A stretch of 64,000 bases of DNA from a virus (IMGVR_UViG_3300037067_013742:32001-96000); one strand, 5' to 3'. Shown: positions 1,903 to 12,620, numbered from the stretch's first letter. Made by a program: numbers and translations. Notes: generated by a model from the letters alone, not told the origin.

Positions 1903-1959
1903 TTAATCCCTTTCTTCTGAGGCTTTGAAAGAGTAGATAGGTTTCACCGTTAGTTCTAT
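1903..1959 (-). pseudogene. rtcB: C-terminal stub of RNA ligase RtcB
   Basis: Translates IELTVKPIYSFKASEERD*, matching the bacterial RtcB C-terminus (KPIYNFKASE type). Confidence 0.55.
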
Positions 1960-2732
1960 ATTATGTGTCTAAGTCTATGCAGTCTGTTTTTAATACTTGA
2001 TTCTGTTCTATTGAGAGTAGCCGCCACATAGTTTATGGGGTAGTTAAGAACAAGATTATCTTGTTCAATAGTCCAGGCCTTTTGAGTAACTTTCTTCATA
2101 GACGAGGGTCGTTCCCATAGTCGAACTTCTTCTGCAAGCTTTTTCTTTCTAAGAATAAAAAGGCTTGCTTCTGAGTAAAGGATCTTAGCAATAGCTTGGG
2201 CTTTTTCTCTAAAGATACAAATATTATATATGTTGTCACGTTCGTTTCTGTGAATTTCAGGTTTCCGATCTGTAGTTTCTTCACAGAAGCTGAGGTAATA
2301 TTCTTTAATACTTTCGCTAGAGGTTGTTAGTGAGATAAAGGGAAGATTCTTAGAAGTTATGCCTAACGATCCGTCTCCATCAACGAGCCCTCTAATATAA
2401 TCGATAGTGACTAACTCATTTGGGGCTGGGGCAATAACATTCTTCTTACTACCATATGGAATCCAGGGCTCTATTACTTTCCTAAAATCCTTGGAACATA
2501 CAGAGAGTATCGAGGAGGTCACTTCTTTTAGGAAGTTTGTATCTCTAGTTCGTTTTCTGATAGACGCTCTGACTTTGTAATCAGCCTCTATGAAATCCTT
2601 TAATTTGTATAAGATTTCTTCGTCTTGTTCAGAGAGTTCTAAAGCAATCCTCCCCTTATGACCAGACCTACCAGACATATGTCCGTCTGAGGTAAGTAAG
2701 CCAATTAGGTACGAGAGTTCTGGTGATTCCAT
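1956..2732 (-). CDS. free-standing double-motif LAGLIDADG homing endonuclease
   Basis: Motifs YLIGLLTSDG and YIRGLVDGDG; C-terminal Myb/HTH-like tail (WT..QD..LNRTESSIKNRL). Confidence 0.9.
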   Translation of the reverse strand: MESPELSYLIGLLTSDGHMSGRSGHKGRIALELSEQDEEILYKLKDFIEADYKVRASIRKRTRDTNFLKEVTSSILSVCSKDFRKVIEPWIPYGSKKNVIAPAPNELVTIDYIRGLVDGDGSLGITSKNLPFISLTTSSESIKEYYLSFCEETTDRKPEIHRNERDNIYNICIFREKAQAIAKILYSEASLFILRKKKLAEEVRLWERPSSMKKVTQKAWTIEQDNLVLNYPINYVAATLNRTESSIKNRLHRLRHII

Positions 2733-9988: not shown

Positions 9989-10657
9989 ATGGATACTAAA
10001 GTTTGCATATCTTGTGGTCAAGATCTTCCCTTGACGGAGTACTGGTTTCAGAATAAAAGTTTAGGGAAACTTTGGGCTTCTTGTCGAAAGTGTGCTTCTT
10101 ACCATCGTGTCTATGGAGTATATCCGAATGGAGATCGGATTATTAAACCCCTTTACAAAACCTGTCGAGCTTGTGGTCTGACCTTCCCTCTAAATGCCGA
10201 ACATTTTCCCATTAATATGACGAGGGTTGATCGATATGGCCATCCGCTTGTGGTTTATCGCTCTCTTTGTAAAACGTGTCGCGCTCGTGGTCGTCGCAAG
10301 TCGAATGTTGAAGAGAGACATATGAATGCCTGGGCTCTTTTACAGAATAAGATTAGGGCTATGAAGGAATTAAGTCCTGATCTCGCTTGTTGTCGTTGTG
10401 GTTTCCAGGGCCACCCAAGTGCCTTTGATTTTCATCATCTTGACCCGGTGAAGAAGGAATCTGCGATTGCGCGACTTCTTCGTCAAAGGAGATTCCTTAC
10501 AGAGAAACAATGGACTCGAGTTCTTGCGGAATTGTTAGGATGCGTTCTTCTTTGTAGAAATTGTCACTCTGTAATTCACTGTTCTGTGCTTGAGGATGGT
10601 TCGCCAAATCCTGATTATGTCCATACCACGAAAGGGCCATTGGTCCAGTATCCCTAG
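9989..10657 (+). CDS. HNH homing endonuclease with tandem zinc ribbons
   Basis: CxxC pairs, FDFHHLDP..K, CVLLCRNCHSVIH. Confidence 0.88.
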   Translation: MDTKVCISCGQDLPLTEYWFQNKSLGKLWASCRKCASYHRVYGVYPNGDRIIKPLYKTCRACGLTFPLNAEHFPINMTRVDRYGHPLVVYRSLCKTCRARGRRKSNVEERHMNAWALLQNKIRAMKELSPDLACCRCGFQGHPSAFDFHHLDPVKKESAIARLLRQRRFLTEKQWTRVLAELLGCVLLCRNCHSVIHCSVLEDGSPNPDYVHTTKGPLVQYP

Positions 10658-10875
10658 CGAGCAGCCCACTTTCCAGAATCAAGAGCCTCTTGTGCCTCTT
10701 CCTCAGTTTTCCAGTATCGTAGGGACTCCCTTGAGTAAGGACCACAGTGATCACACCAGGTTCCGATGTAGTATCCGGCGGCAGACTGACACACCCGGAA
10801 GGGAAGGTCTTTGTCGCACTCGTCACAGTGAGCCATTGTCTTTTCCAGAGAGAGCATTGTTTCGCCGCGAAGCAT
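10654..10875 (-). CDS. small phage protein (SAAGYYIG...CGPYSRES motif)
   Basis: GGAGG RBS before 10875; CxxC pairs. Confidence 0.7.
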   Translation of the reverse strand: MLRGETMLSLEKTMAHCDECDKDLPFRVCQSAAGYYIGTWCDHCGPYSRESLRYWKTEEEAQEALDSGKWAAR

Positions 10876-10877
10876 CT

Positions 10878-11090
10878 CTACCTCCAAGCGTCGGAATCTG
10901 TTCTTACCCACAGGGCAATACCGTGCTCATCTACGTTACCCTCGAACCGCCTGATCGTGTGGGTGTCATCTACAAGAGACCTGAGAAGAACTTCAGCCGT
11001 TGTCTCTCCCCGCTCGTAGGCTAGAGTCTCATAGCCCCAGATGTTGAAGAGGAAGCGTGCGTCTTCTTCGGTTGGCGGCGAATACAACAT
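10878..11090 (-). CDS. hypothetical protein
   Basis: Tiled ORF with GGAGG upstream. Confidence 0.55.
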   Translation of the reverse strand: MLYSPPTEEDARFLFNIWGYETLAYERGETTAEVLLRSLVDDTHTIRRFEGNVDEHGIALWVRTDSDAWR

Positions 11091-11093
11091 CTC

Positions 11094-11354
11094 TCAACCC
11101 TCCACTGTGAGTAGTCTCCAGATGGAGTTGTCATAGTCCATATAGAATGGATACCAGAGGTTGTTGTGCCAGTCACCTCCGATCGAGATGATAAGGAGTC
11201 CTACTGCCACCAGGATGGAGATGTGAGCGGCCGTCCAGATCCCCTCTTCCTTGAGGAATTCTTTTACGACGGGCCACCCACCCAGATAGGTGATCTGTCC
11301 AGTGATGAGGAGTGTAATGCCGGCGACAATAAGACCCATTGCTATGTAAAGCAT
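11094..11354 (-). CDS. two-TM membrane protein
   Basis: Start moved to MLYIAMG (AAGGGG RBS; the longer ORF is poorly supported). Confidence 0.6.
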   Translation of the reverse strand: MLYIAMGLIVAGITLLITGQITYLGGWPVVKEFLKEEGIWTAAHISILVAVGLLIISIGGDWHNNLWYPFYMDYDNSIWRLLTVEG

Positions 11355-11495
11355 CTTTATCCCCTTATAAGTCCAAGAGCTATTACTGCCATTACTATCG
11401 TAAGAACTACCGTCTCTACTCCTAGAATCATTATGGCTAGAATCCAGTGAGAAATCCATCTGATTAGTGAGTAGAACATGTTGGTCCTATTGTGT

Positions 11496-11547
11496 TGGTG
11501 CTGGCGACCAGATTTGAACTGGTAAGGGTTTCCCCATAAGTTCCTAG
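11496..11547 (-). pseudogene. 3' half of a split tRNA-Leu gene
   Basis: TAGGA-ACTTA, long variable arm, ACCAG-TTCAAAT-CTGGT, CGCCAGC-ACCA. Confidence 0.8.
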
Positions 11548-11561
11548 GTCTGTCTTCGATA

Positions 11562-11649
11562 TGGTGCCGCAGCCCGGATTCGAACCGGGACGGGATTACT
11601 CCCATGAGCTTCTAAGGCTCACATGTCTCGCCAGTTCCATCACTGCGGC
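11562..11649 (-). tRNA. tRNA-Leu(TAG)
   Basis: GCCGCAG/CTGCGGC acceptor, TGAGC-CTTAGAA-GCTCA anticodon arm, long variable arm, TTCGAAT loop, encoded ACCA. Confidence 0.93.
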
Positions 11650-12133
11650 GTTTGTTTCTAGCTCCCCACGTCTCGGTTTGCTGATGGCAATTTGGACAGA
11701 GGAGTCTAAGGTTTTCTAATCTGTGGTCAGTATGAATGCCGTTCTTATGATCTACGTGGAGTCTTATCTTGTTACCTAACCAGGAATCAATCCCGCATAT
11801 CTCACAGCGTAGCATCCTGCCGATTTGGACTAGTCGTTTTAGTAGTCTCGATGGTTGATAGGAAGAGTTCTCTGAGAAGACCTCTTCATCTGGGACTGTG
11901 TTCTTTCTTACTGTTTGTCGGACGATCTCGGAGGTTTTCGCAGTCTTTCCCTTTGCCCAACCCTGACCTGTAAAGTGTTCGGTTGGTATTAGTAGGTTTC
12001 TGATCTTGCCATTTATATATCGGTAGTTTCCGCCGGTCCTTTTTAGACCAAGAGTATCTAGGACTTGTCCGATGGATGTGCAGTTTATTACTACTGGAGC
12101 TAGCACCTCGTGGGTATACTTGGATTGTCTCAT
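11612..12133 (-). CDS. HNH homing endonuclease
   Basis: CEICG..WLG..LHVDHKNG..DHRLENLRLLCPNCHQQT; its stop codon is the tRNA anticodon TAG. Confidence 0.92.
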   Translation of the reverse strand: MRQSKYTHEVLAPVVINCTSIGQVLDTLGLKRTGGNYRYINGKIRNLLIPTEHFTGQGWAKGKTAKTSEIVRQTVRKNTVPDEEVFSENSSYQPSRLLKRLVQIGRMLRCEICGIDSWLGNKIRLHVDHKNGIHTDHRLENLRLLCPNCHQQTETWGARNKRRSDGTGETCEP

Positions 12134-12163
12134 TCACTGATTATAGCATACACGCTTCGCTCC

Positions 12164-12199
12164 CTGAACTTACGTGTATGCCAATTCCACCACGCCAGC
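12164..12199 (-). pseudogene. 5' half of a split tRNA-Leu gene
   Basis: GCTGGCG-TG-GTGGAATTGGCATACAC-G-TAAGT; acceptor and anticodon strands complement the half at 11496..11547. Confidence 0.8.
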
Positions 12200-12341
12200 A
12201 GAAAGAAATGCCCTGCAGCATATCCAGGGCTTAGAGGAGGCTTTGGATCTCTTCGATTATTGTTTTTCTATTGGTTGGTAGTGCAATGAAGACCGGGATT
12301 CCTAGCTTGGAATATCTTCTAATAAGAATTTTATAGGGGTT

Positions 12342-12620
12342 TTAGCATCCGTAGATGGAGTGATACATTTCAATGAAGGGGTTAGGTGGGCAGCCTTCCT
12401 GATCCAGCAGGGTCTCCAACCTTTCCGACAGTTCGGTATGCCTGCTTACGTTCTTGGGCGTGGGGTTACATTCCTCCAGCTCGTACATTTCTCCATATGC
12501 CAAGACGGTATCTTGGTTGAATGCCCTCAGTAGGGCTTCTGGATTCTCTGGATAGAGTTCCTTAGCCAATGGGACAAGATCCATCTGATTTGCGGCGAGA
12601 TCTTTTTCTTCTGGGGTCAT
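12342..12620 (-). CDS. hypothetical protein
   Basis: GAGG RBS before MTPEEKD. Confidence 0.55.
   Translation of the reverse strand: MTPEEKDLAANQMDLVPLAKELYPENPEALLRAFNQDTVLAYGEMYELEECNPTPKNVSRHTELSERLETLLDQEGCPPNPFIEMYHSIYGC

Follow-up and report, generated by a model that had tools for sequence, protein, structure and literature searches.

Layout of the split tRNA-Leu locus

We analyzed a 64,000-nt stretch of viral DNA (the window), which corresponds to bases 32001-96000 of a 229,064-bp IMG/VR record with 45% GC. On the minus strand of the window, a tRNA-Leu(UAG) gene is present as two separated halves. The 5' half (12199-12167) begins with G1 at 12199 and contains the acceptor strand GCTGGCG, the D arm and the anticodon-stem strand TAAGT, which runs to 12168 and is followed by one loop base, T32, at 12167. 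The 3' half (11547-11496) supplies the remainder of the loop (CTAGGA), the strand ACTTA, the variable arm, the T arm, the acceptor strand CGCCAGC, A73 and CCA. Between the halves lies a 619-nt insert (12166-11548) made up of a predicted promoter, a gene for an HNH homing endonuclease of 173 amino acids (12133-11612), a second, complete tRNA-Leu(UAG) with an encoded CCA (11649-11562), and a 14-nt spacer (11561-11548) that forms the right end of the insert and leads from the inner CCA to the remnant of the outer anticodon loop. All of these features lie on the minus strand. Apart from the ORF and the inner tRNA, the insert contains just 33 nt on the left, which carry the promoter motif TGCTATAAT, and the 14 nt on the right.

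A first-pass annotation, made from the sequence alone, had described a split tRNA holding an HNH gene and an inner tRNA-Leu(TAG), and this arrangement stands. Its end point for the 5' half, 12164, takes in three bases of the insert and moves to 12167. It had also listed the contents of the insert correctly, as a promoter, the HNH ORF and a divergent tRNA-Leu, while its size of about 615 nt becomes 619 nt. The ENA holds a contig from a separate assembly that is 100% identical over 4.7 kb spanning the locus, so the layout is not an artifact of one assembly pipeline.

The 14-nt spacer showed no homology to the C-terminal domain encoded after the tRNA in two related loci, L002 and L004, and alignment of the sequence ahead of the HNH start codon from five relatives revealed no shared left border of the cassette. 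There is no sign of an integrase: the ORFs adjoining the cassette have no PHROG match, and a repeat search did not find the tRNA 3' end directly repeated at the borders. An 8-nt direct repeat, ATCGAAGA (12257-12250 and 11560-11553), was discarded as a candidate because a repeat of this kind is expected by chance in the region.

The surroundings hold several features of their own. Abutting the first base of the outer tRNA, positions 12200-12229 (minus strand) contain a GC-rich 6-bp hairpin, GCCCTG...CAGGGC, followed by ATTTCTTTCT. This hairpin is terminator-like in form, yet it scores no better than shuffled sequences (z = -0.06). Two other endonuclease genes are found nearby, a LAGLIDADG gene at 1956-2732 (minus strand; Pfam E = 6e-12) and, on the opposite strand, an HNH gene of another family, phrog_2255, at 9989-10657 (plus strand). 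In the ORFs flanking the LAGLIDADG gene, Pfam detected nothing resembling RtcB.

The outer halves form a tRNA-Leu(UAG) when joined

The outer halves pair at 7 of 7 positions in the acceptor stem (the 5' strand with 11506-11500), at 5 of 5 in the anticodon stem (with 11541-11537) and at 5 of 5 in the T stem, in agreement with the perfect acceptor and anticodon stems described in the first-pass annotation. Scoring the joined halves, a check proposed there, gave a clear answer. With the insert removed, 12199-12167 joined to 11547-11496 is called by ARAGORN as an 85-nt class II tRNA-Leu(tag). The reconstituted loop is TCTAGGA. Its C33 and the anticodon TAG directly after it both come from the 3' half; a U at position 33 is near-universal in tRNA anticodon loops.

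An intact counterpart is found on two metagenome contigs, L091 and L092. Their tRNA-Leu(tag), with the loop TTTAGAA, is identical to the outer halves at positions 8-32 and in the ACTTA strand. The outer halves are thus homologous to an intact tRNA-Leu(tag), and this places the break after T32. A scan of the whole genome for split tRNAs returned the outer pair and one other candidate, and the outer pair was the sole split tRNA of its size. The gene is not contiguous, since a cloverleaf forms only once 619 nt have been removed, and the loop then has C33.

Judged by sequence, the outer halves are what is left of a genuine tRNA-Leu(UAG) gene that was once intact. We infer that this gene is now dead, because it is split, lacks a ribozyme and carries C33. 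For a dead gene it is oddly well kept, with every stem perfect, which would point either to a recent event or to selection on the halves.

The inner tRNA is the only tRNA-Leu(UAG) left to the genome

When given the native sequence, ARAGORN calls the inner tRNA-Leu(tag) alone. This tRNA matches the Rfam tRNA model over its full length (51.3 bits against a cut-off of 29; E = 7e-10) and has the expected cloverleaf features, namely U8, G18 and G19, U33, the T-loop TTCGAAT, A73 and CCA. Compared with the joined outer tRNA, it is identical at 61 of 88 aligned positions (69%), and where the acceptor, anticodon and T stems differ, the changes are paired. The inner and outer tRNAs resemble a pair of alleles from a single tRNA-Leu(UAG) lineage.

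The inner gene is the only tRNA-Leu(UAG) in the genome, and CTA makes up 24.7% of the genome's leucine codons, second in frequency among them; loss of its function would therefore probably be costly. The first-pass annotation had reasoned that this isoacceptor is probably needed because the AT-rich genes often use CTA. The frequency of CTA holds, and a need of the phage for this isoacceptor is plausible, but "AT-rich" is inexact for a genome with 45% GC.

Four other tRNAs with leucine anticodons (caa, taa, gag and cag) lie at 10025-11069 of the viral genome. They are 75-77 nt long and have short variable arms, unlike both tRNA-Leu(UAG) copies in the window, which belong to the long-arm class II. 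The same mixture occurs at several of the loci that we examined.

The HNH gene ends in the inner anticodon

The HNH ORF matches the Pfam HNH profile at 23.4 bits (cut-off 21.4) and the PHROG family phrog_10822 with an E value of 3e-46. The ORF overlaps the inner tRNA by its final 38 nt and terminates at TAG (11614-11612), the anticodon of that tRNA, exactly as the first-pass annotation had read it. Recoding of stop codons was considered as the cause of this ORF end and rejected, as the standard code gives 87% coverage of the genome by ORFs of at least 100 amino acids.

All 25 invariant columns of the family are kept in the protein, among them H126, D128, H129, N141, C110, C113, C146, C149 and H150. 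A beta-beta-alpha-metal motif with the catalytic His and Asn and the CxxC...CxxC zinc ligands is present. The AlphaFold model has a mean pLDDT of 88. A Foldseek search with this model returned only weak matches, to the HNH domains of McrA and Cap5, and a PDB sequence search with the family profile gave no match. From its invariant residues and the confident model, the enzyme looks active.

A predicted promoter and a hairpin precede the HNH gene

The motif TGCTATAAT (12148-12140, minus strand) is a perfect extended -10 element that stands 6 nt before the HNH ATG. A good -35 is absent, and a simple consensus scan missed this predicted promoter because of the poor -35. The pattern TGnTATA[AC]T has 12 matches in the genome, and half of these (6/12) have an ATG exactly 6-7 nt downstream, at window positions 2748, 12148 and 17456 (minus strand) and at genome positions 10967, 154860 and 168483. 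Three of the six genes with this promoter spacing encode homing endonucleases: the HNH gene described here, a second HNH copy and the LAGLIDADG gene. The homologue on L099 has the same promoter geometry before its HNH start. A promoter 6 nt ahead of the ATG predicts a leaderless HNH mRNA, and these sites suggest a class of leaderless transcripts in the phage.

The first-pass annotation had also noted a 9-bp inverted repeat that pairs the old D arm with the HNH promoter. This repeat is real. Its perfect arms, GCATACACG at 12181-12173 and CGTGTATGC at 12154-12146, form a hairpin (12181-12146, minus strand) that extends to 12 pairs when wobbles are counted. The fold has an energy of -23.6 kcal/mol (z = -3.1) and was matched by 1 of 200 shuffles. 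In read-through transcripts, the AUG would be internal and without a ribosome-binding site, and the old D arm would be predicted to fold onto the promoter region. In T4-type endonuclease genes, a hairpin and an internal promoter together provide control (PMC2988022). Control of this kind may also apply to the HNH cassette.

HNH genes of this family are generally bound to tRNA-Leu genes

We found 907 homologues of the HNH protein. To count links with tRNAs, we used 80 unique IMG/VR loci out of more than 594 matching contigs. A tRNA on the same strand starts within 110 nt of the HNH CPNCH motif at 32 of these 80 loci, compared to a background of 9% per window of equal size. Most of the linked tRNAs are tRNA-Leu (20 of 32), ten of which have the anticodon tag. 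The HNH stop codon lies inside the tRNA at 19 loci, and in several further long-form members the tRNA begins where the C-terminal extension ends. Homologues in bacterial MAGs also adjoin tRNA-Leu(tag). The link between this HNH family and tRNA genes that the first-pass annotation had put forward for checking is thus borne out, in bacterial homologues as well. We conclude that HNH genes of phrog_10822 are generally bound to tRNA-Leu genes.

The viral genome contains a second phrog_10822 copy outside the window, at 10217-10951 (minus strand; L094:1255-1989). It encodes 244 amino acids, is 36% identical to the HNH of the cassette and has a C-terminal zinc-ribbon/HTH domain. Its ORF ends in tRNA-Leu(gag), and a promoter, TGTGCTATACT, is found 7 nt before its ATG.

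We placed the HNH proteins on a tree from a quick search, in which support near the window's clade is weak. The window HNH clusters with those of L099, L002, L003 and L004 (support 92, not starred), every one of which has a tRNA-Leu(tag), and the same is true of all five nearest HNHs on the tree. The inner tRNAs of these nearest relatives vary widely and include both short and long variable arms. At many loci, the adjoining tRNA may therefore be resident rather than cargo.

Some relatives are read through the tRNA gene. In L004 (2965-3777) and L002 (2908-3783), which carry P0037, the HNH ORF continues in frame through the entire tRNA-Leu(tag) into a zinc-ribbon and helix-turn-helix domain, and P0038 is alike. 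In relatives without the tRNA (P0017 and the genome's second copy), the HNH is fused directly to the zinc-ribbon/HTH domain. The tRNA gene in P0037 thus amounts to an in-frame linker insert of ~28 codons.

Intron-borne, free-standing and nested layouts

The family's loci show three layouts. In the first, the HNH gene is carried by a group I intron of tRNA-Leu(UAA) inserted at site 34|35. Intron_gpI is matched at L025 (50.2 bits) and at L070 (31.7 bits), and L061 and L085 are similar. Junctions of the L025 type read CTT|...G|AAAA. The intron-borne HNHs form one clade (SH-aLRT 96) that stands apart from the window's clade. In the intron-borne ORF at L061:1994-2537, TGA stands in frame where the family has conserved Trp residues, as would be the case in a host or phage that uses code 4.

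In the second layout, a free-standing HNH gene lies directly upstream of a tRNA and overlaps it.

The third layout is nested, as in the window. The outer halves in L004 are 957 nt apart, with tag both inside and outside, and L014 has taa inside and taa outside with an insertion at 32|33. L050 is a probable case, in which ARAGORN misses the inner tRNA and just the acceptor strand is left of the outer 3' part. On the HNH tree, the nested cases occupy scattered positions (4 changes for 4 rows), and their outer tRNAs are unrelated; we read this as repeated origin of the nesting. A further set of loci, L005/L009, L045, L047, L058 and L099, has just the 5' half of a tRNA, upstream of the HNH gene.

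We also looked for an intron at the window locus itself. A narrow Rfam search of 11300-12400 (E <= 10) gave no match to group I or other introns; a search of the same type is what detected Intron_gpI in L025 and L070. No junction at the locus produces a canonical loop, as position 33 is always C and the U and G splice-site bases misfit.

Origin of the nested arrangement

The likely explanation of this locus, in our judgment, is that an intron-less homing cassette interrupts a tRNA gene and brings along its substitute, with the outer gene left dead. The nuclease would cut cassette-free tRNA-Leu genes near the anticodon loop, the site held by its intron-borne relatives. Repair of the break would then copy the nuclease gene together with its tRNA; the HNH gene overlaps the 5' part of this tRNA, so the two are physically inseparable. 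The inner allele, with its different stem sequences, would escape cutting and would take over the reading of CUA and CUG. The HNH would be expressed from its own extended -10 as a leaderless mRNA, and cleavage by RNase P at the 5' end of the tRNA would strip that mRNA of its stop codon, so that output of the nuclease may be tied to, and limited by, maturation of the tRNA. An upstream 5' half and a downstream tRNA would provide homology flanking the break, which would explain the layout with a 5' half only. At the window locus, the right junction would not have formed within the tRNA. A whole second tRNA and 14 nt would have been inserted instead, and the old 3' half would have survived. That the insertion occurred at the anticodon loop is suggested by the topology of the locus and by analogy.

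Searches for a cassette-free relative covered several sources. None was matched among phage GenBank records. Exact patterns of 24-31 nt, taken from either outer half, the intact outer anticodon arm and the inner anticodon arm, did not occur in IMG/VR or in species genomes, and the 135-aa upstream neighbor has no relative in IMG/VR. A scan of metagenome contigs gave no cassette-free relative of this phage and returned just L091 and L092, a different phage-like pair.

We weighed three other explanations. The locus could be the product of a passive rearrangement, through illegitimate recombination or duplication in tRNA genes, with the HNH (for example, a general or packaging nuclease) as a bystander that did not cut. 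Phage tRNA arrays are prone to recombination and rich in tRNA fragments, and the loci with a 5' half only (L005, L045, L047, L058 and L099) could also come from deletions. We nonetheless think this unlikely. In most split cases, the outer 5' part breaks off within the anticodon arm or loop, although in L058 it extends through the entire anticodon arm, and the HNH gene is always directly behind the break. Moreover, the tRNA-Leu association greatly exceeds background and reaches bacterial chromosomes, and the same family has members that are classic homing enzymes carried by introns at this loop. Those enzymes raise the alternative that the insert is a decayed group I intron, in which an HNH-bearing intron like those of L025 and L070 lost its ribozyme and a tRNA gene took the ribozyme's place. 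The family does occur in tRNA-Leu(UAA) group I introns, where the order of 5' exon, HNH ORF, structured RNA and 3' exon is the same. Several observations make such a history very unlikely: the intron-borne HNHs have their own clade (SH-aLRT 96) away from that of the window; their introns sit at 34|35 with U and G splice bases, whereas the window break follows position 32 and offers no such junction; and there is no trace of an intron core, with just 33 and 14 nt outside the ORF and the tRNA.

The remaining alternative, to which we give the least credence, holds that the outer tRNA works. In this view, the inner tRNA would be a protein-free "intron handle" that RNase P and 3' trimming enzymes excise, after which the outer halves would either be religated by a host ligase or function as a base-paired split tRNA. 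The state of the outer stems speaks for this, as they are perfect here (12 stem pairs) and nearly so in L004 and L014, and in the read-through RNA the minimum-energy fold pairs the two outer acceptor strands. If correct, it would amount to bacterial or phage tRNA splicing with a tRNA standing in for the ribozyme. However, a search of the genome found neither RtcB nor an Rnl2-type ligase, and cuts at the ends of the inner tRNA would leave the 5' half with ~480 nt of mRNA still attached and the 3' half with 14 nt, rather than a 7-nt loop. Position 33 is a C, the cassette promoter lies downstream of the 5' half, and in L050 and L045 the outer 3' part has been largely or wholly lost.

Relation to known mobile elements

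The homing cassette that we favor has parallels in several known systems. SegB, encoded in the tRNA gene cluster of T4, recognizes a conserved tRNA-gene element, cleaves within tRNA genes and is inherited with neighboring tRNA genes (PMC2330249). It resembles the HNH gene in being a free-standing nuclease gene among phage tRNA genes (PMC2330249). SegB, however, is a GIY-YIG enzyme whose gene lies between intact tRNA genes without overlap or nesting, whereas here an HNH gene ends in an anticodon and sits inside a broken tRNA gene, its presumed target. In phage Aeh1, the intron-less HNH gene mobE splits nrdA, and the protein pieces reassemble into an active enzyme (PMC2988022). Both cases involve an intron-less HNH gene that splits a conserved and functionally important gene, but a split tRNA cannot reassemble in this way, and function is kept here by a complete second copy beside the nuclease gene. 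Another HNH gene, all8564, is conserved upstream of long cyanobacterial tRNA arrays and has been proposed to aid their horizontal spread (PMC8421152). The likeness, compared by description, is an HNH gene kept beside tRNA genes; all8564 differs in that no tRNA overlap, split tRNA or same-anticodon replacement is described for it (PMC8421152).

Group I introns in tRNA loops, of the cyanobacterial tRNA-Leu(UAA) type and as in L025, L070, L061 and L085, share with the window the HNH family, the tRNA-Leu class, the loop and the order of elements. They differ by their ribozyme core and splice-site features, and the window has a tRNA gene in the ribozyme's place. Integrative elements that target tRNA genes carry the tRNA 3' end in their attP and so restore the gene. 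Like the cassette, such an element enters a tRNA gene and brings sequence that keeps the tRNA working. In contrast to them, the cassette has no integrase and no 3'-end repeat, carries a whole divergent tRNA and breaks its target in the anticodon loop, and its presumed engine is the nuclease together with host repair.

A full-text literature search found no description of a nuclease gene that interrupts a tRNA gene and is fused to a copy of that tRNA with the same anticodon. Homing endonuclease genes are thought to persist in conserved genes by means of self-splicing introns or inteins, or else to lie between genes. The cassette and its recurrences would represent a third route, in which the nuclease gene is joined to its own divergent version of the target and the resident gene can be broken at no cost to the host. 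Because one HNH family uses one site, the anticodon loop of tRNA-Leu, with either a ribozyme or a spare tRNA, the trade-off between the two can be compared directly. The cassette also offers a mechanism for the turnover of tRNA genes and their spread among phages and, apparently, bacteria, and it would explain orphan tRNA halves in phage tRNA arrays. For annotation, it is a warning that tRNA halves and ORFs that enter or cross tRNA genes can be real.

Additional tRNA-related elements

The viral genome encodes a suppressor-type tRNA at 205081-205153, whose anticodon, TTA, would read UAA codons; recoding of any stop codon is not apparent from ORF coverage. At 12136-12371 of the genome (minus strand; L094:3174-3409), a 236-nt element has tRNA-like acceptor and T arms that are separated by ~150 nt. 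The intron mode of ARAGORN labels this element Gly(acc), and in Rfam it shows only a weak match to the 3' end of tmRNA. A full-length tmRNA match (Rfam, 66 bits) was found on another viral contig, at L070:815-1352, where it lies beside tRNAs and the intron-bearing tRNA-Leu.
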